Shown here one piece after another: positions 19,222-37,263 of a stretch of 37,263 bases of DNA. Location of the stretch: the IMG/VR virus record IMGVR_UViG_2778261172_000006, positions 1 through 37,263 of that record, one strand, 5' to 3'. The stretch's first letter is position 1. The number at the start of each line of letters is the position of its first letter. A program made the translations under genes and the position numbers. The notes beneath the pieces are model-generated. The model worked only from the letters and a program-made list of their open reading frames with translations, made no database searches and had not been told where the DNA came from. The stretch comes from a virus (lineage: Duplodnaviria; Heunggongvirae; Uroviricota; Caudoviricetes).

Positions 19222-19275
19222 GTCGCAGGCTTAAAGCCGGTAATCACCATAAAAATCATTCACAGAGGTGACGAA

Positions 19276-20225: not shown

Positions 20226-20376
20226 TACTCCCACATGGGGAAATCTCGGTATATGGGGCGACCGCCTTCTGGATGCACTGGAAACCTGTAACGCGGATAA
20301 ACGGGCCATTGAATTACTGGAACAGCGCAGGCTGCAACGACTGAACAACGAGGATAACAATCATGCTGAAAACTGA
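20056..20376 (+). CDS. lysC: outer-membrane lipoprotein spanin (LysC/Rz1-like), start embedded in lysB in another frame
   Basis: GTG start after GGAGAGG; lipobox LLTGC; proline-rich mature part. Confidence 0.6.
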   Translation: MNSYATILQKMNAPTLCLTLVLLTGCAGTQNAPLPAPSVRLIPQTLTIPVTPPPFPDTPTWGNLGIWGDRLLDALETCNADKRAIELLEQRRLQRLNNEDNNHAEN

Positions 20377-21458: not shown

Positions 21459-22036
21459 GCGCAGAACTCATGCGACTGCTGAGCAATATCATCCGCACCG
21501 GGATCATCTCTGAAGTTGATGAGAAGTCCTGGCGCGTGCGCGTTCGCAGCGGCGAACTGGAAACAGGCTGGTTGCGCTGGAACACCACGCGCGCGGGAGC
21601 CTTCAATGTGTGGCTGCCGCCATCACCAGGCGAACAGGTGGTAATTGCCTGCATTGGCGGCAACCCGGAAACCGCCATGATAATTGGCAGCCTGTGGAGT
21701 GATGCCAGTCCGGCCCCCGGCAAAAGCCTGAAAGAAATCGTGGTCAGCGCGCCGGATGGCGCGGTGTTCCGCTACGACGCAGACGCTGGCGCACTGAGCG
21801 CCAGCGGCATGAAAACAGCCACCCTGCAGGCATCCGTCAGCGTGACACTGGACACGCCCGTCGTGGAATGCACAAACCTTCTGAGAACAGCGACGCTTGA
21901 CGTCACAAAAGGAGGAAAGATGAGCGGCAATATCACGCACAGCGGCGGCGATTTCACCTCAAACGGCATCACAGTGCATACGCATAAGCACGGTGGCGTT
22001 AAAGGTGGCAGCGATTCGACAGGAGGCCCGCAGTGA
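21455..22036 (+). CDS. V: baseplate spike protein (P2 gpV family)
   Basis: GTG start overlapping S stop; LSNIIRTGII N-terminus and C-terminal HTHKHGG as in P2 V. Confidence 0.88.
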   Translation: MSAELMRLLSNIIRTGIISEVDEKSWRVRVRSGELETGWLRWNTTRAGAFNVWLPPSPGEQVVIACIGGNPETAMIIGSLWSDASPAPGKSLKEIVVSAPDGAVFRYDADAGALSASGMKTATLQASVSVTLDTPVVECTNLLRTATLDVTKGGKMSGNITHSGGDFTSNGITVHTHKHGGVKGGSDSTGGPQ

Positions 22037-22383
22037 CAACCCGCTACACAGGAATGAACCCGGACGGAACGGGAAACCTGAACGATATGGAGCACCTGAA
22101 ACAGTCAGTCAGGGACATCCTGACCACCCCGCTGGCAAGCCGGGTTATGCGACGGGAATATGGCAGCCTTGTGCCTGATTTGATTGACGAACCCATGAAT
22201 AACACCACGCGTCTGCAATGCATGAGTGCTGCCGTGATTGCGCTGACACGATGGGAACCCCGCATTGCCCTGGACGCCATCGACGTTGTCTGGAAAGCGG
22301 GAGGCCGCGCCGGGGTGACGCTGTCGGGCACTGTCATGCAGACCATGCAGAATGTTGAGTTAACCATCACGCTGAGGGAGTAA
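22033..22383 (+). CDS. W: baseplate protein (P2 gpW, gp25-like)
   Basis: GTG start overlapping V stop; MTTRYTGMN...RVMRREYGSL parallels P2 W. Confidence 0.88.
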   Translation: MTTRYTGMNPDGTGNLNDMEHLKQSVRDILTTPLASRVMRREYGSLVPDLIDEPMNNTTRLQCMSAAVIALTRWEPRIALDAIDVVWKAGGRAGVTLSGTVMQTMQNVELTITLRE

Positions 22384-22386
22384 ATC

Positions 22387-23283
22387 ATGCCCGCCGTTGA
22401 CCTTTCACAGTTACCGGAACCCGCCATCATCGCGGAGCCTGACTTTGAGGCAATTCTGGCTGACACAAAGGCCATGATGATTGCGGCTTATCCCGCCGAA
22501 CAGCGTGAAGCCGTCTCCGCCGCGCTGGAGCTGGAATCGGAACCCCTGAACGTTATCGCCCAGACAACAGCGTTTCGTGAAATGCTGTTACGCCAGCGGG
22601 TCAATGAGGGTGCACGCGCCTGCATGTTAAGCCACAGCGCCGGGACAGACCTGGACAACCTCGCGGGCAATATGAACACAAAGCGCCTGGTTATCACTCC
22701 GGCAACGGATACCACCGACGCGGTGATGGAAAGCGACACCTCGCTGAGACTGCGGGCGCAACGGGCGTACGACGGCCTGAGTGTTGCTGGCCCGTCAGGT
22801 GCATACGAGTATTTTGCCCGCAGCGCCAGCGGTCTGGTGCGTGATGCGCGGGCTATCAGTCCGTCTCCGGCAAATGTGACGGTTTCCATCCTGTCCACTG
22901 AAGGCGACGGCACAGCAACGGAGGCGTTGCTTAATACCGTTCGCGCCGTTCTGAATGCAGAGGATACCCGCCCGGTGGCCGACCGCCTGACCGTACAGAG
23001 TGCCAGAATCGTGACATGGCGGCTGAATGCAAAACTGTACTTTTACCCCGGCCCGGAATCCGAACCTATTCTGGCCGCGGCGGAATCGTCGTTCAGGAAG
23101 TGGCTGTCTGAGCAGGGGCTTATCGGTCAGGACGTGGCGTTGTCCGCCATTGCTGCCGCACTGCATGTGCACGGTGTGCAACGCGTGGAGATAATCGAAC
23201 CCACACAAAATATGGCCATCAGCGACATACAGGCGGCGCGCTGTGAGTCATTCACCATCAGCGAAGGTGGGCGTAATGAGTAA
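22387..23283 (+). CDS. J: baseplate protein (P2 gpJ family)
   Basis: 298-aa ORF, GGGAG RBS, conserved position. Confidence 0.88.
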   Translation: MPAVDLSQLPEPAIIAEPDFEAILADTKAMMIAAYPAEQREAVSAALELESEPLNVIAQTTAFREMLLRQRVNEGARACMLSHSAGTDLDNLAGNMNTKRLVITPATDTTDAVMESDTSLRLRAQRAYDGLSVAGPSGAYEYFARSASGLVRDARAISPSPANVTVSILSTEGDGTATEALLNTVRAVLNAEDTRPVADRLTVQSARIVTWRLNAKLYFYPGPESEPILAAAESSFRKWLSEQGLIGQDVALSAIAAALHVHGVQRVEIIEPTQNMAISDIQAARCESFTISEGGRNE

Positions 23284-23806
23284 TTCACTGTTACCGCCAT
23301 CAGCCAGCAATTTCATGCGTTGTGCCGAAGCTGTCGGAACGCGCATTACAGACATTCCGGTAGACCTCAACACGCTGTGGTCGCCGGATACCTGCCCGGT
23401 GCATCTGCTGCCTTATCTCGCCTGGGCGTTTTCCGTTGACCGCTGGGATCGCAACTGGCCGGAAGAGACAAAGCGACAGGTGATTCGTGATGCATGGCTG
23501 ACACACCGACACAAAGGGACCATCAGCGCACTGCGCCGGGCCATTGAGCCGCTGGGATACCTCATTCGCGTGTCTGAGTGGTGGGAGTTCGGCGGAGAAC
23601 CGGGAACATTTACCGTTGAAGTCGGCACACTGGACAGTGGTGTGACGGAGGAAATGTATCTGGAAATGGAGCGGTTGATTGCTGATGCCCGTCCGGTCAG
23701 CCGCCACATGACAGGGCTAAATATCATTCAGGAAATTCCGGGGGATATTTTCGCAGCGGCGGCAACTTATGACGGTGAAGTTATTACCATTTATCCAGGC
23801 GATTAA
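23276..23806 (+). CDS. I: baseplate protein (P2 gpI family)
   Basis: ATG at 23276 overlapping J stop; 176 aa. Confidence 0.83.
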   Translation: MSNSLLPPSASNFMRCAEAVGTRITDIPVDLNTLWSPDTCPVHLLPYLAWAFSVDRWDRNWPEETKRQVIRDAWLTHRHKGTISALRRAIEPLGYLIRVSEWWEFGGEPGTFTVEVGTLDSGVTEEMYLEMERLIADARPVSRHMTGLNIIQEIPGDIFAAAATYDGEVITIYPGD

Positions 23807-23808
23807 GT

Positions 23809-25911
23809 ATGAGTACCACAACACGAAAATTTAAAACCGTTATCACCGATACGGGCGCAAAAAAATTAGCTCAGGCAGCCGCGCCAGATGGTAAGCCTGT
23901 CCGCCTGACTCATATGGCCGTGGGCGACGGTGGCGGCACGTTGCCCACACCAGACAGTAAGCAGACCCGTCTGGTGCATGAGGTGTGGCGACACACTGTT
24001 AATCGCGTCATCCTGGACGCAACACATCAGAACCGCATTATTGCGGAGCTGGTTATTCCTCCTGAAACGGGCGGATTCTGGATCCGGGAAATTGGTGTAT
24101 TTGATGAGCACGGCGATTTAATCGCGGTGGGCAATACTGCCGAAAGTTACAAACCAACCGTTGCCGAAGGGTCCGGACGTGCACAAACATTTCGCACCAT
24201 TCTGACCGTATCCAGCACTGCCACCGTGGCGCTTACCGTGGATAACACCATGGTGATGGCCACAGTGGATTACGTGGATGACAAACTGAAAGAGCATGAA
24301 CAGTCACGACGTCACCCGGACGCCTCGCTGACCGCAAAAGGCTTTGTTCAACTCAGTAGCGCCACTAACAGCGATTCTGAAACGCTGGCTGCAACGCCGA
24401 AAGCGGTTAAGGCCGCGTATGACCTGGCTAACGGAAAATATACCGCTCAGGACGCCACGACGGCACGAAAAGGGATAGTCCAGCTCAGCAGTGCAACCAA
24501 CAGCACGTCTGAAACGCTGGCAGCGACACCAAAAGCGGTTAAGGCGGTAATGGATGAAACGAACAAGAAAGCCCCATTAAACAGCCCGGCACTGACCGGA
24601 ACGCCAACAACACCAACTGCACGACAGGGAACGAATAATACCCAAATCGCAAGCACGGCTTTCGTTATGGCCGCGATTGCCGCACTTGTAGATTCGTCAC
24701 CTGACGCACTGAACACGCTGAACGAGCTGGCGGCGGCGCTGGGCAACGACCCGAATTTTGCGACCACCATGACTAACGCGCTTGCGGGTAAGCAACCGAA
24801 AGATGCCACCCTGACGGCGCTGGCCGGGCTTGCTACTGCGGCAGACAGGTTTCCGTATTTTACGGGGAATGATGTCGCCAGCCTGGCAACCCTGACAAAA
24901 GTCGGGCGGGATATTCTTGCGAAATCGACCGTTGCTGCCGTTATCGAATACCTCGGTTTACAGGAAACGGTAAATCAGGCTTCTGGCGCATTACAGAAAA
25001 ACCAGAACGGCGCAGATATTCCGGGAAAAGATACCTTCACCAAAAATATTGGGGCCTGCCGCGCATATAGCGCATGGCTGAATATTGGTGGCGATAGTCA
25101 GGTCTGGACAACCGCGCAATTTATTTCGTGGCTGGAGAGTCAGGGAGCATTTAACCATCCTTACTGGATGTGCAAAGGCTCATGGGCTTATGCAAATAAT
25201 AAGGTCATTACAGATACAGGTTGCGGAAATATTTGTCTTGCAGGTGCTGTGGTGGAAGTTATTGGTACTCGCGGCGCAATGACCATACGCGTTACTACGC
25301 CGAGCACGTCCAGCGGTGGCGGAATTACTAACGCTCAATTCACTTATATTAATCATGGTGATGCTTATGCTCCTGGCTGGCGACGAGACTACAACACGAA
25401 AAATCAACAACCTGCATTTGCTTTAGGGCAAACAGGAAGCACTGTCGGAAATGATAAAGCTGTTGGCTGGAACTGGAATAGCGGGGTCTATAACGCAAAC
25501 ATTGGTGGCGCATCGACATTAATCCTCCACTTCAATATGAATACGGGGAGCTGCCCTGCTGTACAGTTCCGCGTGAATTACAGGAACGGCGGTATTTTTT
25601 ATCGTTCAGCGCGTGATGGTTATGGATTTGAGGCTGACTGGTCAGAGTTTTACACCACGACCCGCAAACCCTCTGCGGGAGATGTTGGTGCATACACGCA
25701 GGCAGAATGTAACTCAAGGTTTATTACAGGTATTCGCCTTGGCGGTCTGTCATCTGTTCAGACATGGAATGGCCCCGGCTGGTCTGACAGGTCAGGTTAT
25801 GTCGTTACGGGTTCAGTTAACGGAAACCGTGATGAATTAATTGATACAACACAGGCAAGGCCAATTCAGTATTGCATTAATGGAACGTGGTATAACGCGG
25901 GGAGTATTTAA
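23809..25911 (+). CDS. H: tail fibre protein (P2 gpH family); C-terminal part encoded inside the invertible segment
   Basis: 700 aa; internal SSATNS-ETLAATPKAVKA repeats; C-terminus CINGTWYNAGSI; constant part ends at the left crossover site. Confidence 0.9.
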   Translation: MSTTTRKFKTVITDTGAKKLAQAAAPDGKPVRLTHMAVGDGGGTLPTPDSKQTRLVHEVWRHTVNRVILDATHQNRIIAELVIPPETGGFWIREIGVFDEHGDLIAVGNTAESYKPTVAEGSGRAQTFRTILTVSSTATVALTVDNTMVMATVDYVDDKLKEHEQSRRHPDASLTAKGFVQLSSATNSDSETLAATPKAVKAAYDLANGKYTAQDATTARKGIVQLSSATNSTSETLAATPKAVKAVMDETNKKAPLNSPALTGTPTTPTARQGTNNTQIASTAFVMAAIAALVDSSPDALNTLNELAAALGNDPNFATTMTNALAGKQPKDATLTALAGLATAADRFPYFTGNDVASLATLTKVGRDILAKSTVAAVIEYLGLQETVNQASGALQKNQNGADIPGKDTFTKNIGACRAYSAWLNIGGDSQVWTTAQFISWLESQGAFNHPYWMCKGSWAYANNKVITDTGCGNICLAGAVVEVIGTRGAMTIRVTTPSTSSGGGITNAQFTYINHGDAYAPGWRRDYNTKNQQPAFALGQTGSTVGNDKAVGWNWNSGVYNANIGGASTLILHFNMNTGSCPAVQFRVNYRNGGIFYRSARDGYGFEADWSEFYTTTRKPSAGDVGAYTQAECNSRFITGIRLGGLSSVQTWNGPGWSDRSGYVVTGSVNGNRDELIDTTQARPIQYCINGTWYNAGSI
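24340..24558 (+). repeat. tandem repeat of about 132 bp inside H, encoding GxVQLSSATNSxSETLAATPKAVKA twice
   Basis: Two 44-aa units visible in the H translation. Confidence 0.75.
24941..24974 (+). repeat. left crossover (gix-like) site
   Basis: TTATCGAATACCTCGGTTTACAGGAAACGGTAAA, inverted copy of 28002-28035 (31 of 34 identical); contains the TTCCTGTAAACCGAGGTTT core I recall for Mu gix. Confidence 0.85.
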
Positions 25912-25913
25912 TT

Positions 25914-26447
25914 ATGATGCACTTAAAAAATATTACAGCTGGCAACCCTAAAACAAAAGAGCAATACCAGCTAACGAAACAATTTAACATCAAATGGCTT
26001 TATACAGAGGATGGGAAAAACTGGTATGAGGAACAAAAGAACTTTCAGCCTGATACGTTGAAAATGGTCTATGACCACAACGACGTTATTATTTGTATTG
26101 AAAAGGATGTTTCAGCAATTAATCCAGAAGGCGCAAGCGTCGTTGAGGTTCCTGATATTACAGCAAATCGCCGGGCTGATATTTCGGGTAAATGGATGTT
26201 CAAAGATGGCGTAGTGATAAAGCGAACTTATACCGAGGAGGAACAGAGGCAGCAGGCAGAGAATGAAAAGCAAAGCCTGTTGCAACTTGTCAGGGATAAA
26301 ACCCAGCTATGGGACTCACAGCTACGGCTGGGCATCATTTCCGACGAGAATAAACAAAAATTAACCGAGTGGATGCTCTATGCGCAGAAGGTCGAATCCA
26401 CAGACACCTCCAGCCTGCCAGTAACGTTTCCCGAACAACCTGAATGA
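25914..26447 (+). CDS. G: tail fibre assembly chaperone (P2 gpG / Tfa family)
   Basis: 177 aa starting MMHLKNITAGNPKT; directly follows H. Confidence 0.85.
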   Translation: MMHLKNITAGNPKTKEQYQLTKQFNIKWLYTEDGKNWYEEQKNFQPDTLKMVYDHNDVIICIEKDVSAINPEGASVVEVPDITANRRADISGKWMFKDGVVIKRTYTEEEQRQQAENEKQSLLQLVRDKTQLWDSQLRLGIISDENKQKLTEWMLYAQKVESTDTSSLPVTFPEQPE

Positions 26448-26450
26448 GAC

Positions 26451-26480
26451 AAGGCCCGCTATCGGGCCTTAATTTTTATT
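26451..26480. terminator. bidirectional terminator between the convergent tfa genes
   Basis: AAGGCCCG-CTAT-CGGGCCTT hairpin followed by AATTTTTATT. Confidence 0.65.
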
Positions 26481-27003
26481 CAGGCTTTTGTGGCCATTCA
26501 GGATTTGCCGTATCCACACGGCTGACCAGAACACTGTAGCGTTCCCATGACTCCAGTCGTGCGCGCTCCTCATCCGTCGCCATATTCAGCCTGACAGCGC
26601 GTTCCAGTGGCTGAATAACGCTTTCTGCTTCGGAAAGTAACGCAGCCTTTTGTGATTCGGCCTGTTGTTGCTGTTCATCAGCCGTATAAATCCGTTTAAC
26701 CACAGCTCCGTCCTTAAACATCCACTTTCCTGAATCATCAGCGCGGCGGTTGGCTGTAATATCGGGAACCTCAACGACGCTAAAGCCTTCAGGGTTAAGC
26801 GTAGAGGCATCCTTGGTGATAGCGACAATAATATTATTTTCATCGTAAACAATCTTTATTGTGTCTGGCTGAAAGTTTTTCACTTCCTCATACCAGTTTT
26901 TTCCGTCTTCGGACCACAACCAGATAACGTCAAAATTCTTTGTTAATTCGTACTGCTCCAGTGTTTTAGCATTACCCGTTTTTATATTCTTTAAGTGCAT
27001 CAT
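26476..27003 (-). CDS. alternative tail fibre assembly chaperone (Tfa', inverse orientation)
   Basis: 175 aa, N-terminus [14 protein letters not shown] paralogous to G; minus strand inside the invertible segment. Confidence 0.85.
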
Positions 27004-27004
27004 A

Positions 27005-27985
27005 CTAAACGCTCGCTACATTATACCAGGTGCCATTTATATACTTTTGAACGGGTCTGTAATAAACGCCCGCTATATTATCGGCAGAGTTGGACCCTGT
27101 ATCCTGAACATTAATACCAGACAATACATGACCTGACGGGCACTGGAAATTCCATGTTTGCCAGTTGTTCACTCCATAATATTGCTGTGAACCAAGTCGA
27201 ACATCTTTCACATATCTGGAATCAAAATTGCCATAGTTGCCGGGAATAACTTGCGAGCCGCAAAGCCAGTTCCCGTTATTATCCATGTACGCCTGACCAT
27301 CGGTACCATTGGCTGTCCTTGAGTTATTAATCATGTAGATGCCAAATTGCTTATTCCCCAATCCACCTATCATGAACTTGCGGTCGGCGTGATTCTGGCG
27401 AAGCAACGCCTGAGCGCTATCAGTGTTAACTATATTTTTCCCAAAGATAGCGTTGTTATCGCGCATCTGAATCCACATACCATTACTGCTGTTAATAGCA
27501 AAACGGTCTGAAAGTGTCTCCCCTGAAACATTAAGACCACGCCCCATCGAAACAGCGCCAGTAGCGTTATTAATCCATAATGGCCTTAATCCGTTATAAG
27601 TCCCCATGTTGTCACCGGAGTTTGTCAACATGAAGTATGTATTTGAACCATCATTACGAATAAAGAATCCGTAATTACCATAAGCAATACGTAGGCCGTT
27701 TGCTGATTTTGATATGACTTCGCCATTTACAATGGCATTGACAAGAACATACAAAGCATCCCATTTAAGATTCATCAGGTCTTTTGTTGTGGTGCTTTGT
27801 TTGCTTCTCCATTTGAAATATTCATTGCCGTTGTCGCCTGTTTCAAACCACATGAATGAATCAGTATCGCTGTCGGCATCATTTTTAAAACCAATCTTCG
27901 CCCAGTCGGTATTTCGAATCCATGCAAGAATTGAGTCGTTTTCAAAAGTAAGTCCACCGGACAAGATATCGCCTGTCTTTTGCAC
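27005..27985 (-). CDS. alternative tail-fibre C-terminal cassette (no start of its own; reading frame stays open through the right crossover site to 28027)
   Basis: Frame upstream of the track start reads [15 protein letters not shown], matching EYLGLQETVN at the H crossover; C-terminus [11 protein letters not shown] paralogous to the H C-terminus. Confidence 0.8.
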
Positions 27986-28001
27986 GGCGTTACCAGCCTT
28001 G

Positions 28002-28035
28002 TTTACCGTTTCCTGTAAACCGAGGTTTTAGATAA
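28002..28035 (-). repeat. right crossover (gix-like) site
   Basis: TTTACCGTTTCCTGTAAACCGAGGTTTTAGATAA. Confidence 0.85.
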
Positions 28036-28089
28036 TGGCCGTTTCCGGCCTGCATGGCATGATTTGCGCTTTTGGACGGGAGATTCAGC

Positions 28090-28677
28090 GTGCTGATTGG
28101 CTATGTAAGGGTATCAACAAATGACCAGAATACAGACCTGCAACGAAACGCTCTTGTTTGTGCAGGATGTGAACAAATATTTGAAGATAAATTAAGCGGG
28201 ACAAAGACAGACCGACCGGGATTAAAACGCGCTTTAAAGCGCCTTCAAAAAGGTGACACGCTGGTTGTCTGGAAACTGGATCGCCTCGGGCGAAGCATGA
28301 AACATCTGATTTCTCTCGTCGGGGAACTACGGGAGCGAGGAATTAATTTTCGCAGTCTGACCGACAGCATAGATACATCTTCTCCAATGGGGCGTTTTTT
28401 CTTCCACGTGATGGGTGCCCTGGCTGAAATGGAACGTGAATTAATTGTTGAACGTACACTGGCCGGACTGGCGGCAGCACGCGCACGGGGGCGCACAGGC
28501 GGACGTCGACCGAAGCTGACAAAAGAACAGCATGAGCAAATAGCAAGGCTAATCAAAAACGGGCACGACAGAAAACAACTGGCAATAATTTACGGCATTG
28601 GTATATCGACGATTTATCGTTACCACCCCGCAGGAGAATCAAGGGGAACAATTGAGAAGAGTCAGGAAACAAAATAA
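28090..28677 (+). CDS. serine DNA invertase (Gin/Pin/Cin/Hin family)
   Basis: GTG start after GGGAG; VLIGYVRVSTNDQNTDLQRNALVCAGCEQIFEDKLSGT... is near-identical to the remembered Mu Gin sequence, including the catalytic Ser region and C-terminal HTH. Confidence 0.95.
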   Translation: MLIGYVRVSTNDQNTDLQRNALVCAGCEQIFEDKLSGTKTDRPGLKRALKRLQKGDTLVVWKLDRLGRSMKHLISLVGELRERGINFRSLTDSIDTSSPMGRFFFHVMGALAEMERELIVERTLAGLAAARARGRTGGRRPKLTKEQHEQIARLIKNGHDRKQLAIIYGIGISTIYRYHPAGESRGTIEKSQETK

Positions 28678-28705
28678 CCGCTAATCTGACCATTAGCGGT
28701 TTTTG
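28678..28705. terminator. terminator between invertase and U (bidirectional candidate)
   Basis: CCGCTAAT-CTGACC-ATTAGCGG hairpin followed by TTTTT. Confidence 0.6.
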
Positions 28706-28712
28706 TGTTAAA

Positions 28713-29207
28713 TCAGAACAGCCCTTTAACTGAACTGGCCGCGCTGTTAAGAGATGATGTCACCTTATCTTTGAAGCCGGACAGCATATCGCTGAATGAT
28801 GAGGATTGCAGGCGCTCCCGCAAATCCTCATCACAGCGTTCAAGGGTCAGTGAAAATTCTATCTTTTTCGCCTTACCGTAGCGATCAAACTCGGAACGGG
28901 TCGTATTCGTTTCAGTCAGCACATACATGCCGTAAATCTGCCCGACACCATCAATCAGAGGCCAGGGGCGTCCTGTATATGCCTGCGTGGTCAGCAACGA
29001 AAGCGACACTTCGCCACCTGTAATTTCAGGATAAAGCACGCCGGAAAGCACAATGCGATCATCACCTGCACCTATATACTGCCAGCTTGCTGAACGGTTA
29101 ACGCGTTCATTTTTCACATGCCGCCAGCTTTTGTTTTGCTGTAACTGCTGATGCGGCAGTGTGCGCAGCTCAAAAACAAACATGCCGTAGATCATCATCA
29201 TGACCAT
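28713..29207 (-). CDS. U: tail protein (P2 gpU family)
   Basis: 164 aa starting MVMMMIYGMFVFEL, like P2 U; start among several adjacent Met codons. Confidence 0.8.
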   Translation of the reverse strand: MVMMMIYGMFVFELRTLPHQQLQQNKSWRHVKNERVNRSASWQYIGAGDDRIVLSGVLYPEITGGEVSLSLLTTQAYTGRPWPLIDGVGQIYGMYVLTETNTTRSEFDRYGKAKKIEFSLTLERCDEDLRERLQSSSFSDMLSGFKDKVTSSLNSAASSVKGLF

Positions 29208-29213
29208 GACTCC

Positions 29214-32030
29214 TCAATCTTTATCGTAAAAACTGCCACGTCCGGCACGGGCGCGCCGTTCCATCTCTGCCCTGACCATTTCACCGACCAGTTTCGCCAG
29301 TTCGCGGGGATTCTGCGTAACAACGTTATGCAGATGAACATGAATTTCACCGCCAAATCCGGAGACAACAGGCTCCCGGTTACGGGAAGTTGCAGGAATT
29401 GATGCCACTGGCGATCGTATGGCCTCCGCCACCGGACGGGAGCTGGCCGCAACAACAGGGACCAGCGCCGGAGGCAGAGGAGCCGGGACTACGGGTGTGA
29501 TGTTGATTGCGGAAGCAGACTTACTGGCCTGCGCAATCTTCCGCTCCTGCCACTCCCCACGAACAGCAAGTGCGCGGGGCAGGTTCTTAAAGACAATATC
29601 GCCGGGGCCAATGCGTTTTTTCGTCTCATCAACCAGCTTACCTGTGTTATCAGCAATTTTGCTGAGTCTGCGTAGCGTACCGGTATTGCTGTCTGTGAGC
29701 GGTTTATTGTCTTTGGGTTTATCACCTCCGGTGCCATTGCCATTTTCCGCAGGCTTCGGCGGATTGATTTTCGCAAGGTCCCCCTGAAGCAAGGCAACCT
29801 TGTCCTGAAGAATGGCCGCACGCTGTGCGTCTTCGATTTTCTTGCGCGCCCTTTCCGCTTCATCCGGAAGGACGCCAAGTTTTTCAAGTATCCACGCCAG
29901 CGTATCCAGTAGCATTTTTGCAGGTGTCAGAACAAGCTGTAACGCACCGCCAAGAACGTTACCGAATATCTCGCCAGCACTGGTACATTTATCCAGCGTT
30001 TCCTTGCTGGACTCCATCGGTGATAGCAGCGATTTAAACCAGTTAAAGACCTGAATAATCCCATCACGCACGACATCAAAAACAGGACCGAACCGTTCAA
30101 AGGTTTCGCGCAACGGAGCCAGCCGTTCCATAATCCCACTGAACACCCCGGCATAAAACGCCTTGATGGGTTCCCAGTATTTCCAGATGAGAACCGCCGC
30201 AGCCACAAACGCAGCAACAATCAATCCAACCGGACTGAGCAGCGCCCCGATAGCGCCACCCAGCAACGAGATGGAACCTGTTACCATTCCCCATAGTGCT
30301 GGCAGCACCCTGACGACATTCATTGATCCTGTCAGGAGAGAAAAACCGAGACGTAACGTAGCCAGCTTCCCGTGAAGCACCCCAATAACCAGAGACAACG
30401 AACCAACCGTTGCTGTTGTCGCCAGCAGTGCACCTCCCGCTATCAGTAGCTGGCGCGTCAGTGCCGGATGGGCCTGCGCCAGCGCCGTCACCCTTGATAC
30501 CACCCGCGTGAGCCACTGCGTGACAGAACGCAGCGGACCGTCAATCAGATCTGCAATGCGGATGCGCAACCCTTCCCATGCACTGCCGAGTGATTTCAGA
30601 TCGCCGTCAAGGTTGTTGGCCATAACCTTTGCCGTGCGTTCAGCCTCACCGCGCGCGCCTTCAAGTTCTTTTCTCAGTTTGGGTAAGGAGCCGTCACCTG
30701 CCGCATCAACGAGGGCCATAAATGATGTGAAAGCCTCTTCTCCGGCAATGTCCTTAAAGAACGATACCCGGTCAACTTCCCCGTATTTGCGGGTGGCTTT
30801 ATAAAGGTCAGCCAGCACATCCTCCATCGGGCGCATTTTGCCCCCGGCATCCGAGACAGACACGCCAAGCTCTTTCAGCGCCTCTGCTGCCGCCTTTGGC
30901 GGTGATGCCAGACGAGCCAGGCTGGCACGCATTGCCGTCCCGGCATCACTCCCTCTGATACCCATATTCGCCAGCACGCCCGCCATCGCTGCGGCCTGCT
31001 CCAGCGATATTCCCAGCTTACCCGCCACCGGACCTGCATATTTCATGGTTTCGCCCAGCGCGCGAAGGTCAGTGTTAGTACGGGTAAACGCTGCTGTAAG
31101 CGTGTCACCGACCCGGTCCATCTGGTCAGCGGAGAGGCCGAACTGCGTCAGGATATTTGAGCCAATATCTGCCGTCTCGCCGAGATCCATACCGCCAGCC
31201 GTTGCCATGCTCAGCACGCCGGGAAGCGCAGCCTGAATGGCCTGCGGAGTGAAGCCAGCCATTGCAAGAAATGCCTGCCCACTGGCGGCATCGCCTGCGG
31301 TGAACTGCGTTTCAGAGCCAAGTTTTAACGCCTGCTCACGCAGCGCCTTAAACTGCGGGCTGTTCTGGTCGATTCGCGTCAGTGCCTGAACGCGGGACAT
31401 CTCTTTCCCGAACCCGATCGCAGGCTGCAAAAAACGCCCGGCAGCATAGCCGCCCGCCGCTGCCGCACCAATTGCCAGTGCACCACCTGTTTTCAGTTTT
31501 CCCGCTGTTTCCTGCGCGCGCGAATACCGCTCACGCGCCCGCGTTACACGCGCAAGCGCCTGCCGTTCGCGTTCAAGCTGGTTGTTATACTGTTCGGTGC
31601 GTCTGATGGCCTGCTGGATGGTGTTATCGCTGCCTGTCAGGGAAATGCCGTGGCGTTTCAGCTCTCCGCCAAGCTCCCGCATTTTCTGAATTTCCCGTGT
31701 GCGCGATTCATTCAGGCGTTCAAGCCGGGTGCTTAACTGCTGCATCAGCTTTTGTTGTTTTTCGCTGAGCACTGTACCCGTGCGTTGTAACTGATTAAGG
31801 GCGTTAAGCTGGCGTCGTGCTTTCACGATACCCGCATCCGCTTTACTGACAGCGTCGCGGGCGCGCTCAAATGAACGCGCCTGACGCTCGAGATTTTTGA
31901 TCGCCCCCTGCGTTCGCTGGATGGAGTCACCAAACTGCCCCATCAGGCGGCGTGCGTTTTCGGCAGGTCGGGTCAGCCTGTCAACGGCGCTGAAAGCGAC
32001 CCGGATATCAAGAGTCTTCATTGTCTGCAT
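29214..32030 (-). CDS. T: tail tape measure protein (P2 gpT family)
   Basis: About 940 aa, Ala/Gly-rich with coiled-coil N-terminal half; start ambiguous between 32021, 32030 and 32057. Confidence 0.88.
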   Translation of the reverse strand: MQTMKTLDIRVAFSAVDRLTRPAENARRLMGQFGDSIQRTQGAIKNLERQARSFERARDAVSKADAGIVKARRQLNALNQLQRTGTVLSEKQQKLMQQLSTRLERLNESRTREIQKMRELGGELKRHGISLTGSDNTIQQAIRRTEQYNNQLERERQALARVTRARERYSRAQETAGKLKTGGALAIGAAAAGGYAAGRFLQPAIGFGKEMSRVQALTRIDQNSPQFKALREQALKLGSETQFTAGDAASGQAFLAMAGFTPQAIQAALPGVLSMATAGGMDLGETADIGSNILTQFGLSADQMDRVGDTLTAAFTRTNTDLRALGETMKYAGPVAGKLGISLEQAAAMAGVLANMGIRGSDAGTAMRASLARLASPPKAAAEALKELGVSVSDAGGKMRPMEDVLADLYKATRKYGEVDRVSFFKDIAGEEAFTSFMALVDAAGDGSLPKLRKELEGARGEAERTAKVMANNLDGDLKSLGSAWEGLRIRIADLIDGPLRSVTQWLTRVVSRVTALAQAHPALTRQLLIAGGALLATTATVGSLSLVIGVLHGKLATLRLGFSLLTGSMNVVRVLPALWGMVTGSISLLGGAIGALLSPVGLIVAAFVAAAVLIWKYWEPIKAFYAGVFSGIMERLAPLRETFERFGPVFDVVRDGIIQVFNWFKSLLSPMESSKETLDKCTSAGEIFGNVLGGALQLVLTPAKMLLDTLAWILEKLGVLPDEAERARKKIEDAQRAAILQDKVALLQGDLAKINPPKPAENGNGTGGDKPKDNKPLTDSNTGTLRRLSKIADNTGKLVDETKKRIGPGDIVFKNLPRALAVRGEWQERKIAQASKSASAINITPVVPAPLPPALVPVVAASSRPVAEAIRSPVASIPATSRNREPVVSGFGGEIHVHLHNVVTQNPRELAKLVGEMVRAEMERRARAGRGSFYDKD

Positions 32031-32537
32031 TCCCGCTGCGAAGTGCCGCCCGCTCACGCCAGCTAACCACTTCGCCGGGCGTCATCATGAAGATTTCGGC
32101 GGGCGACCAGTTAAAAATGGCGGCAATATCCGCCACAAAGTCTTCTATGTGCTCAAAGCACACAACCGTGATCAGGCTTCCGTCGCCTGTTCGTTCTTCC
32201 CGCCAGAGTCCGCACCGCTCAAAAAATTTACGGCAACCACACATAACTGAATAAAGTCACGGGATGCCATTTTTTTGATCGTCACTTCATCCAGTCGCGG
32301 TGATGTCACGCGTGACAGCAGCGTAAACATGGATTCCGCTTTCAGACTCAGCACATCAGACAGCGACAAATCTCGCAGAGATCCAGCCTGCTCAATAGCC
32401 CCGGTGATCTCCACATACGTGATTTTTTCGCCGCCTCGCTCAATGGGTTGGGTAAGTTTTACGCCACGCTCACTGGTTTCTTTCACAGTGTCAGCAACTA
32501 CCGTATTTTCGGTATCGATGTTTTTCGTCTCTTTCAT
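32008..32537 (-). CDS. E+E' product of programmed -1 frameshift
   Basis: TTTTTTG heptamer (minus strand, 32220-32226) in the E frame; -1 frame stays open to 32008 and overlaps the T start, as in P2 E/E'. Confidence 0.7.
32172..32537 (-). CDS. E: tail assembly chaperone E (P2 gpE family)
   Basis: ATG at 32537 with AAGGAG RBS; 121 aa; contains slippery heptamer near the 3' end. Confidence 0.8.
   Translation of the reverse strand: MKETKNIDTENTVVADTVKETSERGVKLTQPIERGGEKITYVEITGAIEQAGSLRDLSLSDVLSLKAESMFTLLSRVTSPRLDEVTIKKMASRDFIQLCVVAVNFLSGADSGGKNEQATEA
32220..32226 (-). other. -1 ribosomal frameshift slippery site TTTTTTG
   Basis: Read directly; E frame AAT TTT TTG, shifted frame AAA TTT TTT GAG. 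Confidence 0.7.
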
Positions 32538-32591
32538 CAGGAAACTCCTTTCAGTCAGAGGCGACGCACTGCGCCGCCTGCATATTACTTA

Positions 32592-33104
32592 TCAGCCAAG
32601 CCCGAGCGCGGAACGGATGCGATCGGGCACAATGTCCTTGCCGTCCTTCCGGTAAATGAAGTTCAGCAGGTCAATCTCCCACAACGGGCGATCGTTAACA
32701 CTCAGCTTGTAGTAGGTGTTTTTAATGGCGTAAGTGTGTGATGTGGCTTCGCCCTGTTTGGCTTCCCCCATATCAATTTCCGTCACACGTCCGCGCATTT
32801 CGACTTCATACAGGTCGCTTTCTGCATCGGTGTAGTATTCACCCGCAAAACGCAGCAGCGTGCCGTCAATCGTGCCGCCATACTTAAGGAACAGCTCACG
32901 AACTGCGCCCCCCATGACAAAGCTCGCATCAAGCGCGGAGTCGTCCAGGCCGAGATCAATACTTACCGCCCCCATCATGCCACCACCCCGGTAGCTGTCG
33001 GTTTTGCGCGTCAGCTTAGGCAAAGTGACGGACGTCACCTTACCCACTTCGTTTTCACCATCCACAAACAGCGTAAAAAAGCGAAGATGTTTTGGCACAG
33101 CCAT
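32592..33104 (-). CDS. FII: tail tube protein (P2 gpFII family)
   Basis: 170 aa; GGGAGG RBS; start overlaps FI stop. Confidence 0.88.
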   Translation of the reverse strand: MAVPKHLRFFTLFVDGENEVGKVTSVTLPKLTRKTDSYRGGGMMGAVSIDLGLDDSALDASFVMGGAVRELFLKYGGTIDGTLLRFAGEYYTDAESDLYEVEMRGRVTEIDMGEAKQGEATSHTYAIKNTYYKLSVNDRPLWEIDLLNFIYRKDGKDIVPDRIRSALGLG

Positions 33105-34288
33105 CAGGCACCTCCCAGCACCGCAAATGCGGGTTCAAAGTATTCATCAGTAAACGTCTGGTAAAGCTCCATGTCTTCCAGTGGCGGAACGGGCGTATAT
33201 TTGTAGCGAATACGCACACGCCCCTGACGTAAATCCGTGGTGCTGTTATCCACCACGTCATACCAGCACTCCGCGCCAATCAGTTTCCCGGCAGTCACCA
33301 GTGAATCCAGTTTTGCCCTGATGGCACTGATAACATCCTTCACGTTCGCAGGCGTCAGTGGACTGTCGATGGTTTCAAACTGCGCTTCCGCAATTGAATC
33401 AGCCAGCACCTGTGCGGTTCGGGTATACACCTCAAAAATGTAGGCGTTCGTTTCCGGTGTGCGGTTGCCCCAGAAGCGGAACCCGTTGCGACGAATAATG
33501 GTCGTGATTTCTTTGTTGTTGAGGCTGTTGGCATCGCTGTCTTCGGCCTGCAACGACCAGAACACATGCCTCGACATCCCCAGCACATTTTTAACCGGAA
33601 CGTTGGACAGCGATTTGTGCCAGCCCTGCTCATGGTCAATGTACGCACGAAGGCCGCACGCATAAGCAGGCGCGGGGAACGTTTCGTTTTCGCCACTTTT
33701 CGGGTTGTAGGCGATGAAGTCCGGCCATAAGAGCATCACTTCACGTTCGTTGAATTTCTGGCGGTAGGTAATCGCTTCAGCCATCGTGTTACAGCCGTGA
33801 CATGAGGCATACACAAATGCGCGCAGTTTACCCGCAATCACGCACAGGGATTTTGTCACCGCCTCCGTGTCCAGCTCCGGCGCGGCCAGAATACGCGGAC
33901 GGTATCCGATGCTTTCATCCTGCTCTGCAACAAGCAGCGCATACATCCCCGTATAGCTGCCGTCATCCTCAGAACCACCGATAACCAGTTGATCCTGCGT
34001 CTTTTCGTCTTCTTCTTTGTGTTCAGCCACGCGAACGACGATCACCTTTGTGCTCACCTGGTCTGCGATGGCCTTAAGCGCACGATAAAGCGTCCCCGTT
34101 GTTCCGCATTTTCCCAGCACGTCATTGACGCGGGTCAGCAGTGTGGGCTTGTTCAGCGGGAACAACTTCGCGTCCGCATCATCCGCCGTTGCCACGATAC
34201 CGATAACGCTGGAATCAACATCGTTAATCGCTGTTACCAGGTCGGTATTTTCCGTAACACGGGCACCATGAAAACGAGTTTCACTCAT
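33104..34288 (-). CDS. FI: tail sheath protein (P2 gpFI family)
   Basis: 394 aa; IRRNGFRFWGNRT and YKYTPVPPLE motifs as in P2 FI; AAGGGG RBS. Confidence 0.9.
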   Translation of the reverse strand: MSETRFHGARVTENTDLVTAINDVDSSVIGIVATADDADAKLFPLNKPTLLTRVNDVLGKCGTTGTLYRALKAIADQVSTKVIVVRVAEHKEEDEKTQDQLVIGGSEDDGSYTGMYALLVAEQDESIGYRPRILAAPELDTEAVTKSLCVIAGKLRAFVYASCHGCNTMAEAITYRQKFNEREVMLLWPDFIAYNPKSGENETFPAPAYACGLRAYIDHEQGWHKSLSNVPVKNVLGMSRHVFWSLQAEDSDANSLNNKEITTIIRRNGFRFWGNRTPETNAYIFEVYTRTAQVLADSIAEAQFETIDSPLTPANVKDVISAIRAKLDSLVTAGKLIGAECWYDVVDNSTTDLRQGRVRIRYKYTPVPPLEDMELYQTFTDEYFEPAFAVLGGA

Positions 34289-34445
34289 AGCTTCAGCCCC
34301 TTGTATCCGTTAAATGATTCGGCAACAATCATCACCCACCACGCGCGTAATCTCACCCCTGCGCCGTTCTCCCGCCACGGCGACAACAAAAAGCAGTAAC
34401 CCCCTCCGCACGCACATGCGACCATGCCACACAGGGAGGGAGCAG

Positions 34446-35555
34446 ATGACCGACACCACCATGCAATTGCTCAGTCAGGGCACAGACCCCGTGAAAATGC
34501 CGGATTTTGATATTCTCGCCGAGGGTAAAACGCTGTCCGGCGTGGCAGAACGCCTGATGAGCCTGTCACTGACCGACAACCGGGGATTTGAGGCGGACCA
34601 GCTCACCATCACGCTGGATGATGCTGATGGTCAGTTGCAGTTGCCGCCACGGGGCGCTCGCCTGACGGTTCTCATTGGCTGGAAAGGCGAACCGCTGACA
34701 GAAAAAGGCACTTACATTGTTGATGAAATTGCTCATGAAGGACCGCCCGACAGACTGACCATTTCAGCCAGAAGCGCAGATTTTCGGGATGAATTTAACG
34801 TCAAGCGCGAAGTGTCCTGGCATGATGTGACCGTTGAGCGAGTGGTATCCGCCATCGCTCATCGGTACGGTCTGAAACCGCAAATCAGCGAAATGCTGAT
34901 GGATATCGAAATCGACCACGCCGACCAGACCGAAGAAAGTGACATGTCCTTCCTTACGCGCATGGCGGAAATGCTGGGCGCAATCACCACGGTAAAAAGC
35001 GGCAATCTGTTATTCATCATGCCCGGTGGTGGCGTGAACGCACAGGGCCAGCCGTTGCCCTCGTTCGCCATTACACGCAGCAGCGGCGATCGCCATCAGT
35101 TCCGTATTGCTGACCGCGAGGCGTATACGGGGGTACGCGCCTACTGGCTTGATCTTAATTACGGGAAAAAGAAAAAGGTCAGCGTAAAACGCCGTAAACC
35201 GCCAAAACCCAAAAAGGAGAAAAGCAGCAGCCGTGAAGGTGATTATATGGAAGGTGCGGAAGGCAATGTGTTTGTGTTACGCAAGACTTATCAGAACGAG
35301 CAGGCAGCAAGACGCGCAGCGGCGGCAAAGTGGCAGCAGCTACAACGCGGAGCCGCATCATTTTCCATCACGCTGGCACGTGGACGTGCAGAACTCTACC
35401 CCGAAATGCATGGCACGGTAACAGGATTTAAAAGCGAGATTGATAATCAGGACTGGATTATTGCAAAAGCCGAGCACACCATTGATAACAGCGGCTTTAC
35501 CACGCAGCTTGAGCTTGAGGCAAAAATCCCGGAATGGATAGCGGAAACAGAGTGA
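34446..35555 (+). CDS. D: late tail protein D (P2 gpD family)
   Basis: ATG at 34446 after GGGAGGGAG; 369 aa; position immediately before ogr. Confidence 0.88.
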   Translation: MTDTTMQLLSQGTDPVKMPDFDILAEGKTLSGVAERLMSLSLTDNRGFEADQLTITLDDADGQLQLPPRGARLTVLIGWKGEPLTEKGTYIVDEIAHEGPPDRLTISARSADFRDEFNVKREVSWHDVTVERVVSAIAHRYGLKPQISEMLMDIEIDHADQTEESDMSFLTRMAEMLGAITTVKSGNLLFIMPGGGVNAQGQPLPSFAITRSSGDRHQFRIADREAYTGVRAYWLDLNYGKKKKVSVKRRKPPKPKKEKSSSREGDYMEGAEGNVFVLRKTYQNEQAARRAAAAKWQQLQRGAASFSITLARGRAELYPEMHGTVTGFKSEIDNQDWIIAKAEHTIDNSGFTTQLELEAKIPEWIAETE

Positions 35556-35597
35556 GCAACTTAGAATAGCGGCAGCACCACGTTAAGGGAGGTCGCT

Positions 35598-35858
35598 ATG
35601 TTCCGTTGTCCGCTTTGTGGCGCATCTGCCCGTATCCGCACCAGTCGTCCAGAAAATGATTCAAACACCGTGCGGCAAAAGTATTACCAGTGTAACAATC
35701 TGGAATGCGGCGTATGCTTCTCAACACTGGAAGCTTTCCATAAATTCACATCAAAACACGCCTCCGGCGTTCACTCTTCAGAAGGTATCCCGTGGCATGA
35801 TCTGCCAGCTTCACACAGGGGAAACAATCAGATGAGTTTGCCTTTACCTCAGAATTAA
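35598..35858 (+). CDS. ogr: zinc-finger late transcription activator (Ogr/Delta family)
   Basis: MFRCPLCGASARIRTSR...YYQCNNLEC has the C-x2-C ... C-x4-C pattern and resembles P2 Ogr; GGAGG RBS. Confidence 0.85.
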   Translation: MFRCPLCGASARIRTSRPENDSNTVRQKYYQCNNLECGVCFSTLEAFHKFTSKHASGVHSSEGIPWHDLPASHRGNNQMSLPLPQN

Positions 35859-36256
35859 CAGACAGAATTGCCGGAGTAACAAAAAAAGCGATACACCCAT
35901 TTACCCGGCAGTACCACTCCCCCGCCCCATAGCTGGCAGTGAGGCGGGATGTTTTGCCTACCCGCCAGCAGGCACCATCGTGGAAATATCCAACATTGAA
36001 GGACGCCCGGATAAGCCTGTTATCAGGCAAATCTTACCCATCGGTCATAACCTGCCTGATGTAAAGCCCGGCGAACAATTGCAACAACAGCGTGCAGAAG
36101 TGTTTCAGCATGTCACGACTGACGGAAGCTGGCGCAGAAAAACCGACCAGCAAATCCAAGAAGAAAAGCGCGTAAAACGATCACTGCTGATGTGGCGTTT
36201 CTTTATACAAGCTGCTATTTGCGATATGCTGAACACATCAACCTGTGGAGTGCATT

Positions 36257-36883
36257 ATGAAACAAAAATCAAAGTCTGCTGCCATTGCTGCTATTGCTAC
36301 AGCTCTGACAGCATCACTGGCTCCGGTGCCAGCTAAAAGCACGATACTACCAACAACAGTTATTGAATCCGTGACACACGCCAGAGTGGTTTCAATGCTT
36401 ACATTTGAGCATCATGATGGTCAGGTGTTTCTGCCTCTTGAAGAAGCTATTGAATATATCAACGGGCTGAATGACAACATGCGTGCCGCGCTCAATGCAG
36501 TCATTGAAGAACGACAGAACAGAGGCAAGGGAGCTCTGTTTGCTGACAAAACCGCAAAAATCATAAAAATATGCGAAGAGTCACTTAAGCAGCACAGCCG
36601 TGTTAAAGAGGCTGTCAAAATTGTAATGGATCCGGATAACCTGGCAAAAATGTATCCGGATAGCATGGAGCAAAGAATCGCCTATCGCAATAAACTGGTT
36701 CGTTTTGGTCGGGCAATTGCGCAGGGAGAGTTTATCGCTCGTGATGCCATCAACGCCATCAAACGAAGCACCGCACCAGACAAAACGACCAGCCTGGGCA
36801 ATACGCTGTCTGACGGAAATGTGAAAGCAATGATTATTGCCGAGCATAAAAACATGGGACTCCCGGCACCGGAGTTTTCCTGA
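36257..36883 (+). CDS. hypothetical protein (208 aa), upstream partner of YafO-like gene
   Basis: ATG at 36257 with GGAG RBS; Ala-rich hydrophobic N-terminal segment AAIAAIATALTASLAPVPA; stop overlaps downstream start (ATGA). Confidence 0.55.
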   Translation: MKQKSKSAAIAAIATALTASLAPVPAKSTILPTTVIESVTHARVVSMLTFEHHDGQVFLPLEEAIEYINGLNDNMRAALNAVIEERQNRGKGALFADKTAKIIKICEESLKQHSRVKEAVKIVMDPDNLAKMYPDSMEQRIAYRNKLVRFGRAIAQGEFIARDAINAIKRSTAPDKTTSLGNTLSDGNVKAMIIAEHKNMGLPAPEFS

Positions 36884-37263
36884 TGGCAAGCAAAGTAAGC
36901 ATTCATAAAGATGTTGAATACCAGGACATTGCAAAAGTTTACGGAAAGGCTCTGGAAAACTGGTTAAATACCGGTGTTCTCCCTGACAGATTCGGCAATG
37001 AAGGGCAGTGGGAAGATAACGCAAGATTATGTGGTTCGTTTGTATATAAATTACACATAAGACTACCGTCAGAACCACCATGGAAGAAAAGCAAAGCCCA
37101 AATAGACAGAACTTCAAATATCTATCTGGTTTATACAAGGCACTGGATGGATTATGACAATATACAAATCATCAGCATCATGGCCCCAGATGCTCACGAA
37201 AAAGCCAAAACTTCTTTCATGGCTGAGCTGGAAAGACGGGCAGAAGAATTCCAGAACTCATAA
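36883..37263 (+). CDS. YafO-like toxin (type II TA ribosome-dependent mRNA interferase family)
   Basis: 126 aa; GVLPDRFG, HIRLP, SNIYLVYTRH and IISIMAPDAHEKA parallel remembered E. coli YafO motifs (GVLPDIFG, HIHL, EAHLVYCQG, LIAILKPEPHKLA). Confidence 0.65.
   Translation: MASKVSIHKDVEYQDIAKVYGKALENWLNTGVLPDRFGNEGQWEDNARLCGSFVYKLHIRLPSEPPWKKSKAQIDRTSNIYLVYTRHWMDYDNIQIISIMAPDAHEKAKTSFMAELERRAEEFQNS

Follow-up and report, generated by a model that had tools for sequence, protein, structure and literature searches.

In phage P2, the tail genes FI, FII, E, T, U and D run in the same direction as V, W, J, I, H and G, as the initial annotation of the present locus had stated and the P2 annotation bears out. 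In the window, the whole stretch of 37,263 nucleotides analysed here, U, T, E/E', FII and FI instead form a minus-strand block of 5.6 kb (28713-34288) between a DNA invertase gene and the genes D and ogr, all three of which are on the plus strand. The question raised by this locus is whether the block is a fixed rearrangement of its lineage, a second segment inverted by the invertase or by recombination, or an artefact of assembly, how the arrangement may have arisen, and how the divided tail genes may be transcribed.

Gene content and distribution of the layout

The strands first assigned to the block, D and ogr are confirmed by the Pfam and tblastn identities of the gene products. To the right of the invertase gene (28072-28677, plus strand; Gin/Hin-type serine invertase with Pfam Resolvase and HTH_7 matches), the minus strand carries U (tail protein, 28713-29207; Pfam Phage_P2_GpU, 5.5e-39; 46% identity to P2 U), T (tape-measure protein, 29214-32057; PhageMin_Tail, 3.7e-58; 33% identity to P2 T), E with its -1 frameshift product E+E' (32008-32537), FII (tail tube, 32592-33104; Phage_tube, 7.5e-47; 42% identity to P2 FII) and FI (tail sheath, 33104-34288; Pfam sheath domains; 46% identity to P2 FI). 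The limits given for T are those of the longest open reading frame, and the annotation of phage P88 implies a start near 32021. E (32172-32537) is without a Pfam match and is identified by its tblastn match to P2 gpE; the E' frame (32008-32244, minus strand) matches Pfam Phage_P2_GpE, and a P2-type slippery sequence, TTTTTTG, lies in E at about 32226-32220 on the minus strand. An Rfam scan of the block gave no match.

The block is separated from D by an intergenic region whose length, 157 bp (34289-34445), stands as initially given. D (baseplate hub/late control D, 34446-35555, plus strand; Pfam Phage_GPD; 49% identity to P2 D) most likely starts at the ATG at 34446, which is preceded by GGAGGG and aligns across relatives. 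It is followed by the gene for an Ogr/Delta-type zinc-finger late activator (35598-35858, plus strand; Pfam Ogr_Delta, 5.2e-14). The F operon of P2 (FI FII E E' T U D, promoter PF) and that of phage 186 share these genes and their internal order with the window, along with the TTTTTTG frameshift in E/E' and the location of ogr downstream of D. In P2, however, the seven genes constitute one operon in the direction of V-G, with D overlapping the end of U, whereas in the window FI-U are reversed and D is split off; the identities to the P2 F operon proteins are only 31-49%.

On nucleotide comparison, the window is a P88-like (Xuanwuvirus) P2-family prophage of the Peduoviridae. Its identity to P88 (NC_026014 / KP063541; Xuanwuvirus P88) is 96.6% at 82% coverage for positions 1-25000 and 97.0% at 99% coverage for positions 27900-35900, the two stretches compared, which flank the tail-fibre tips (25001-27899). 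The overall identity is 96-97%, and the ICTV genus level corresponds to about 70% or more genome-wide nucleotide similarity. Pfam, tblastn and the P88 annotation also agree on P2-family late genes with the FI-U block divergent from D-ogr, and P88 has the strand layout of the window throughout (invertase+, U- T- E- FII- FI-, D+ ogr+). Other members of the P88 group (phiSM, P884B11, 520873, 500465-2, PhiR44_2 and Chuche) are 94-97% identical to the window. Positions 27900-35900 form a single colinear alignment, at 94-97% identity, to P88, phiSM, P884B11 and others. The window, P88 and these relatives align colinearly through the entire tail region and over most of the genome; only accessory regions set them apart, those being the immunity end (1-2250), the tips of the tail fibres and the cargo genes.

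The same strand layout is annotated in P88, PhiR44_2, Chuche and SEN4. Three of these (PhiR44_2, Chuche and SEN4) have no invertase beside U, PhiR44_2 and Chuche differing from the window in the lack of the invertase cassette, yet the orientation of their block is the same. Klebsiella phage Kp4871-3 likewise shares the layout, as do P88, phiSM and SEN4, which are viable, plaque-forming phages (PMC5285337, PMC6456863, PMC5261728). Of 5426 complete E. coli genomes, 1357 contain the FI|D junction in colinear form, and P88-type phages are found in about a quarter of such genomes. The order U- T- E- FII- FI- | D+ ogr+ is also found in all of the approximately 43 informative prophage loci from about 20 genera of Enterobacterales (gpD identity to the window, 65-99%); most of these loci have no invertase nearby, and the orientation of the block is unchanged in them.

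The orientation of the block is thus almost certainly a fixed, lineage-typical arrangement, neither an active inversion nor an artefact, and the first of the readings offered in the initial annotation proves to be the correct one. The comparison with related prophages proposed there finds the layout to be universal in the nearest relatives, which that annotation had itself counted against the arrangement being out of the ordinary. The layout is ordinary and already represented in databases, since it belongs to a very common and already sequenced P88-like group. The papers on P88, phiSM, SEN4 and Serratia PP4 make no mention of the orientation of the block.

Origin of the reversed block

The clade in which the reversed FI-U order is fixed comprises Xuanwuvirus, Reginaelenavirus, Senquatrovirus and many prophages of Enterobacterales, and the divergent order is confined to this clade, in which gpD is at least about 63% identical to that of the window. 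Phages with gpD of at most 53% identity, in seven other groups, have the co-directional order; examples are P2, Felsduovirus, Kapieceevirus, Duonihilunusvirus and phages of Ralstonia, Pseudomonas and Mannheimia. The P2-like Burkholderia phage KS5 is also co-directional (PMC3091744). The co-directional order in the more distant phages therefore suggests that the ancestor of the clade underwent one old inversion. A single ancient event of this kind, in which the FI-to-U part of an ancestral P2-type F operon would have been turned around, is the most likely origin, its direction being assigned by parsimony over few sampled outgroups and not from a rooted phylogeny. P2 is consequently no universal template for gene order in the Peduoviridae, and the main value of this observation lies in correct annotation.

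The divergence of the late genes from P2 bears on whether the block came from elsewhere. In tblastn comparisons, protein identity to P2 is 31-46% inside the block against 41-61% for the flanking late genes; outside the block it is 49% for D, 47% for V, 44% for W, 47% for Q, 44% for P and 41% for N. Separate acquisition of the block was not retained as the leading explanation, given that its genes and those around it have diverged uniformly from P2. It is accordingly unlikely that illegitimate or homologous recombination put a foreign, reversed FI-U cassette from another contractile-tail phage in place of the original module. In favour of such a replacement, P2-like phages are mosaic and insertions are known to concentrate at the G/FI boundary, as with Z/fun in P2 and the invertase cassettes of several genera; the age of the event also leaves this origin a small probability. 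Against it, the divergence of the block is on a par with that of its flanks, the gene order within it is the exact reverse of that of P2, and across relatives the identities of FI (60-83%) and D (65-80%) to the window drop together, with no discontinuity at the junction.

Less probable still, and indeed very unlikely, is that the divergent FI|D order came first and that the co-directional order of P2 is derived from it. Every distant lineage sampled, whether its hosts are gamma- or beta-proteobacteria, is co-directional, and the limitation of the divergent order to one clade (gpD identity at least about 63%) is not what an ancestral state would suggest.

Relation of the block to the neighbouring invertase

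An ancient inversion that became fixed is to be distinguished from one that is still active, and a real example of the latter lies directly to the left of the block. The segment at 24941-28035 resembles the Gin/Cin/Hin/Pin segments such as the Mu G segment and the P1 C segment in having gix sites, alternative H/G tail-fibre ends and a gin-like gene, the invertase gene being about 92-96% identical in nucleotide sequence to Mu/D108 gin. The only gix sites in the window (24941-24966 and 28010-28035) bound this segment, with which an inverted repeat is also associated. Both states of the segment occur in E. coli genomes (112 native vs 81 flipped). The neighbouring invertase flips only this tail-fibre segment, and not the FI-U block.

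At the two junctions of the block, no gix-like site was found, as the initial annotation had also reported; the best 26-mers have 9-11 mismatches at 24 scored positions. Nor was an inverted repeat linking the two junctions found. A synthetic junction from U to D, representing the 'un-inverted' state, matched none of 1420 E. coli genomes, in a test that had been validated on the true invertible tail-fibre segment, for which both states were detected.

In the light of these results, it is highly improbable that the block is a second invertible segment caught in one of its two states, whether turned over by the adjacent Gin-type invertase from secondary sites or through recombining inverted repeats, and this suggestion of the initial annotation is not upheld. 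The block begins only 35 bp past the invertase gene, and Gin/Cin invertases use quasi-sites at low frequency. Unlike the Mu G and P1 C segments, however, the block of 28.7-34.4 kb shows neither crossover sites, nor both orientations, nor dependence on an invertase: it has no gix-like sites or linking repeat at its junctions, its flipped junction is absent from 1420 E. coli genomes, the true segment being detected in both states, and its orientation is identical in invertase-less relatives. A flip would, moreover, strip D of its promoter arrangement and disrupt the conserved divergent gap. The proximity of the invertase, which had implied a tie to the block, is coincidental, because an invertase immediately upstream of FI is also seen in P2-type phages whose F operon is co-directional. 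A difference in orientation beside an invertase gene should therefore be checked against relatives before it is called a switch.

As for a block mis-oriented in assembly, also considered initially, its probability is negligible: nothing but the unusual orientation relative to P2 speaks for it, the same junctions recur in 1357 complete E. coli genomes, in plaque-forming phages that were sequenced independently and in 43 loci of other genera, and the junctions have no repeats able to mislead an assembler.

Predicted control of the divergent late genes

A scan of the window for exact TGT-N12-ACA gave six matches, none of them in late intergenic regions and none in the FI-D gap. The statement in the initial annotation that no exact dyad is present in the gap is thus accurate, but it overlooked a one-mismatch site, TCT-N12-ACA, at 34366-34387. 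Because none of its six matches falls in a late intergenic region, the strict pattern carries no information for this phage, and the extended dyad was used instead. In this form, the site is an Ogr-type activator dyad, GTTCT-N12-ACAAC (34366-34387; TCT-N12-ACA in the P2 register; centre at 34376.5). A matching dyad at 15248-15269, in the divergent P-O late promoter region, provides an internal comparison, the two gaps having the same GTTCT-N12-ACAAC(AAAAG) motif. Only five dyad-like sites with at most one mismatch are present in 37 kb, against about one expected by our own estimate from base frequencies.

Across 45 relatives, the gap varies little in length and contains conserved blocks. Among the relatives, the arms of the dyad are conserved and its spacer varies freely; a perfect GTTGT-N12-ACAAC occupies the same alignment column in 12 relative loci, and SEN4 has the motif in both its P-O and FI-D gaps. 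P2 and the present arrangement have in common an Ogr-type dyad that precedes the start codon of FI by some 82 nt. The distance from the dyad centre to the FI ATG is 88.5 nt in the window and 78.5-88.5 nt in relatives, with a median of 82.5 nt equal to that of P2 PF, where GTTGT-N12-CCAAC lies inside the annotated activator site, 82.5 nt from FI and about 57 nt from the mapped start. The distance to the D ATG is 69.5 nt in the window and 67.5-71.5 nt in 43 of 44 relatives. Two features of a P2-type Ogr/Delta late promoter are present, a partial dyad without a -35 element and a phage-encoded Ogr/Delta activator (35598-35858).

D has no co-directional gene upstream and therefore needs a promoter within the gap. 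A sigma-70 scan of the block found no -35/-10 pair in the FI-D gap, as expected for activator-dependent promoters. At an offset of 46 nt from the dyad centre on either side, a -10 element may be predicted. For the leftward FI promoter this would be GATGAT (34328-34333, minus strand), with a start near 34321, in a region where the alignment of relatives has the conserved block TGATAATC. For the rightward D promoter it would be GACCAT (34420-34425, plus strand; AATCAT in relatives), with a start near 34432. The predicted D element is preceded by a CGCGCGCG-like block that is conserved in the alignment of relatives, and the P side of the P-O gap has the same CGCGCGCG together with a TAATCT block.

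From these features, the FI-D region (34289-34445) is inferred to carry two divergent late promoters, and the tail genes would make up two late units transcribed away from each other, FI-FII-E/E'-T-U being read leftward from the gap and D, with ogr downstream, rightward. Both promoters would be activated by a single mid-gap dyad (34366-34387) placed at about -55, in the manner of the P2 PP/PO site. In P2, PP and PO share one activator-binding region (3057-3087) between divergent starts at 3016 and 3127. The FI-D gap is similar in being a short divergent late gap with one dyad at its centre, some 55 nt away from either of the predicted starts; those of P2 are annotated. This shared-dyad model, in which Ogr binding, starts and -10 elements are all predictions, is probably correct. 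Two observations count against it: the left arm of the dyad has one mismatch in the window and is weaker still (GGTCT) in many relatives, and the predicted leader of D is only about 14 nt long. If the model holds, the FI-D gap of P88-type phages is a compact bidirectional late promoter, and the symmetry of the activator site let the inversion split the operon without loss of late control.

P88-type phages lack a separate PV gap, as S overlaps V; upstream of V in the window, where the two genes also overlap, no PV-type site was found within two mismatches. With slightly less assurance than for the promoters themselves, it may be proposed that the old inversion created a second region of the PP/PO style, and that the late genes of P88-type phages are all driven from two bidirectional activator sites. 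Such two-site control in P88-type phages is not described in the open-access literature examined.

The leftward unit would end at a predicted bidirectional intrinsic terminator (28676-28701), which has a 10-bp stem with T-runs on both strands and lies between the invertase stop codon (28675-28677) and the U stop codon (28713). Its two RNAs fold with energies of -15.7 and -16.1 kcal/mol (z about -4). The invertase-less relatives align with the window from 28663/28664 onward, so the terminator hairpin travels with the U side.

Gene order and strand around the FI-U block

The window carries int (1-1008, minus strand), replication gene A (6186-9008, plus), Q and P (12388-15185, minus), O through G (15307-26447, plus), a Mu-G-like invertible tail-fibre segment, and the invertase gene (28072-28677, plus). 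These are followed by U (28713-29207), T (29214-32057), E/E' (32008-32537), FII (32592-33104) and FI (33104-34288), all on the minus strand (the FI-U block), and by D (34446-35555) and ogr (35598-35858) on the plus strand. Pfam supports all the gene names except E, which was matched to P2 gpE by tblastn and contains a P2-type TTTTTTG frameshift site. Because FI-FII-E-T-U-D of P2 is co-directional with V-W-J-I-H-G, the initial annotation was correct in describing the block as opposite in strand to the flanking late genes, unlike P2.

The start of D is most plausibly the ATG at 34446, which lies just 3' of GGAGGG and aligns in register with the D start of all relatives; the FI-D gap (34289-34445) then has the 157 bp originally reported. 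The D reading frame is open upstream to 34314 (ORF 34314-35555). The small ORFs annotated in this gap differ by record (gp50 of P88 is on the plus strand; SEN4_27 and the ORFs of PhiR44_2 and Chuche are on the minus strand) and are probably not genes, because the gap alignment shows single-base indels.

At the other end of the block, a hairpin at 28676-28701 is scored as a terminator in either direction (RNA folds of -15.7 and -16.1 kcal/mol, z about -4), and the leftward FI-U operon would end there. The terminator belongs to the F-operon side, since invertase-less relatives align from 28663 onward. Homology with two of these, PhiR44_2 and Chuche, starts 13-15 nt ahead of the stop codon of the invertase gene (28663-28677), and therefore the invertase ORF ends inside the stem of the U-side terminator. 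Judged by this alignment, 28663-28677 is the right edge of an inserted fibre/invertase cassette.

Other genes were also seen in the window. Rfam matches above gathering score to isrK (5257-5331, plus) and C4 antisense RNA (5367-5454, plus) place a P1/P7-type antisense immunity module (5257-5454) in the early region of this P2-family prophage. Just downstream of gene A lies a ParM/StbA-type actin-like plasmid segregation protein (9085-10044, plus; Pfam 1.8e-82), an unusual cargo in an integrated P2-like prophage. Downstream of ogr, at the right end, is a YafO-family type II toxin ORF (36883-37263, plus; Pfam 1.1e-27); P88 and Chuche have a hok/gef (MokW-like) gene annotated in the corresponding region after ogr.

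Distribution and origin of the inverted layout

In megablast searches of phage records, 27900-35900 matched as one colinear piece, at 94-97% identity, Escherichia phage P88 (Xuanwuvirus) and Citrobacter phiSM, P884B11, 520873, 500465-2 and 503458, and PhiR44_2 and Chuche matched from 28663 onward. P88 also covers 82% of 1-25000 at 96.6% identity, which by sequence identifies the window as a P88-type phage. The deposited P88 annotation has an identical strand layout, and those of PhiR44_2 and Chuche have the same layout without an invertase beside U. The layout is functional, because P88, phiSM and SEN4 form plaques (PMC5285337, PMC6456863, PMC5261728).

The FI/D junction (33900-34800) is colinear, at 95-99% identity, in 1357 of 5426 complete E. 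coli genomes. A gpD scan with one genome per species yielded 47 loci, the genes of which were classified by tblastn. In every informative locus (about 43; gpD 65-99% identical), minus-strand U, T, E, FII and FI adjoin plus-strand D and ogr, and J, I and H are on the plus strand; such universality among the nearest relatives is what the initial annotation had taken to speak against its reading. The hosts include Salmonella, Edwardsiella, Serratia, Erwinia, Pantoea, Klebsiella, Kosakonia, Brenneria, Pectobacterium, Symbiopectobacterium and Rouxiella, and only about seven loci have an invertase beside U. Only at L049 of Trabulsiella odontotermitis (1213-10009) does a rearrangement reach the invertase; this is a decayed relative lacking J/W/V, in which I plus an H N-terminal fragment lie on the minus strand directly adjoining the invertase, about 80 bp are inserted between D and the candidate activator dyad of the FI-D gap, and D is frameshifted or deleted.

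When representatives of the phages found by gpD tblastn against phage records were inspected for F-gene orientation, the arrangement split cleanly by gpD identity to the window. The block is inverted at 63% or more, in Xuanwuvirus (94% or more), Reginaelenavirus Kp4871-3 (70%) and Senquatrovirus SEN4 (63%). The order is P2-type at 53% or less, in Felsduovirus SEN8 (53%), Kapieceevirus (52%), Klebsiella Kp4845-2 (52%), Duonihilunusvirus (50%), P2 (49%) and Ralstonia, Mannheimia and Pseudomonas phages (43-44%); the co-directional order is also that of Burkholderia KS5 (PMC3091744). The simplest explanation is that the FI-to-U segment was inverted once, in the ancestor shared by the clade, with the direction of change (inversion in this clade) taken from parsimony rather than from a rooted tree. 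Separate acquisition of the block as a cassette is argued against by its identity to P2, which is similar inside (FI 46, FII 42, E 31, T 33, U 46%) and outside (D 49, V 47, W 44, J 55, Q 47, P 44, N 41%). The genus has already been sequenced and classified, and the inverted layout can be seen in every deposited clade genome; the orientation of the block relative to P2 is not remarked on in the open-access papers on P88, phiSM, SEN4 and Serratia PP4.

Tests for switching

A synthetic un-inverted junction, with the U sense strand joined straight to D, was searched in all complete E. coli genomes and was found in none, 1420 genomes matching both halves separately. The same kind of test was applied as a positive control to 24941-28035, a true Mu-G-like invertible segment (gix sites 24941-24966 and 28010-28035) in which H/G occupy the plus strand and the alternative H'/G' the minus strand (26476-27985), G' being 93% identical to P2 gpG. 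At its invertase-proximal junction the native form was found in 112 E. coli genomes and the flipped form in 81. Since both states of the control were recovered, the junction test can pick up genuine switching by an invertase; the FI-U block, with no flipped junction among the 1420 genomes, does not switch.

As the initial annotation had noted, there is no gix-like site at either block junction (the best have 9-11 mismatches of 24), nor was an inverted repeat linking the two junctions found. The block lacks all three tested properties of a serine-invertase invertible segment, namely paired crossover sites at its ends, both orientations among close relatives and dependence on a linked invertase gene, and invertase-mediated inversion is rejected. 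An invertase beside the F genes is common and unrelated to their orientation, since three P2-type phages have one directly upstream of plus-strand FI. The assembly-artefact reading is also rejected, and a fixed rearrangement of the lineage is the option originally proposed that stands.

Predicted divergent late promoters in the FI-D gap

Because FI and D diverge, D is left without a co-directional upstream gene and needs a promoter inside the gap. GTTCT-N12-ACAAC, an Ogr-type candidate activator dyad, occurs there at 34366-34387, and GTTCT-N12-ACAAC(AAAAG) at 15248-15269 in the P-O gap, the other divergent late gap. Only five GTTGT-N12-ACAAC sites with at most one mismatch exist in 37 kb, versus about one expected from our own base-frequency estimate, and two of them fall in these two short gaps. 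The others, at 18553-18574 inside gene L and at 27608-27629 and 27830-27851 inside the invertible segment, may have arisen by chance, for which about one match is expected. The P2 PF activator site includes GTTGT-N12-CCAAC, in the register of which the window site reads TCT-N12-ACA; an exact TGT-N12-ACA is indeed absent from the gap, as first reported, because of this single mismatch, and the one-mismatch form is present.

When 45 distinct FI-D gaps were aligned, both arms of the dyad proved conserved, as did the AAA after it, and the 12-nt spacer is free to vary; 12 loci have a perfect GTTGT-N12-ACAAC. Measured to the dyad centre, the distance from the FI start codon is 78.5-88.5 nt (median 82.5, the P2 PF value), and that from the D start codon is 67.5-71.5 nt for 43 of 44 relatives. 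Conserved -10-like blocks occur about 46 nt to either side of the centre: a putative leftward GATGAT (34333-34328, minus) and a putative rightward GACCAT (34420-34425, plus) with a CGCGCGCG-like block just 5'. A CGCGCGCG-like block also precedes the P-side -10-like element in the P-O gap, and both the motif and the GC block recur in the P-O and FI-D gaps of SEN4. No sigma-70 -35/-10 pair is present in the FI-D gap, as expected for activator-dependent late promoters.

The gap resembles the P2 PP/PO region in having a single dyad between divergent late genes; in P2 the two divergent transcription starts are each 55-56 nt away from one annotated activator site (3057-3087). We infer that one shared dyad would activate both the leftward FI and the rightward D late promoters, and this putative bidirectional promoter is the sole element that we did not find described.

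S and V overlap at 21455-21458, leaving no intergenic PV region, unlike P2, and no dyad within two mismatches occurs upstream of V. In SEN4, by contrast, S and V are separated by 157 bp that include GTTGT and a CGCGCGCG block. The V-G genes of the window may be read through from PO.
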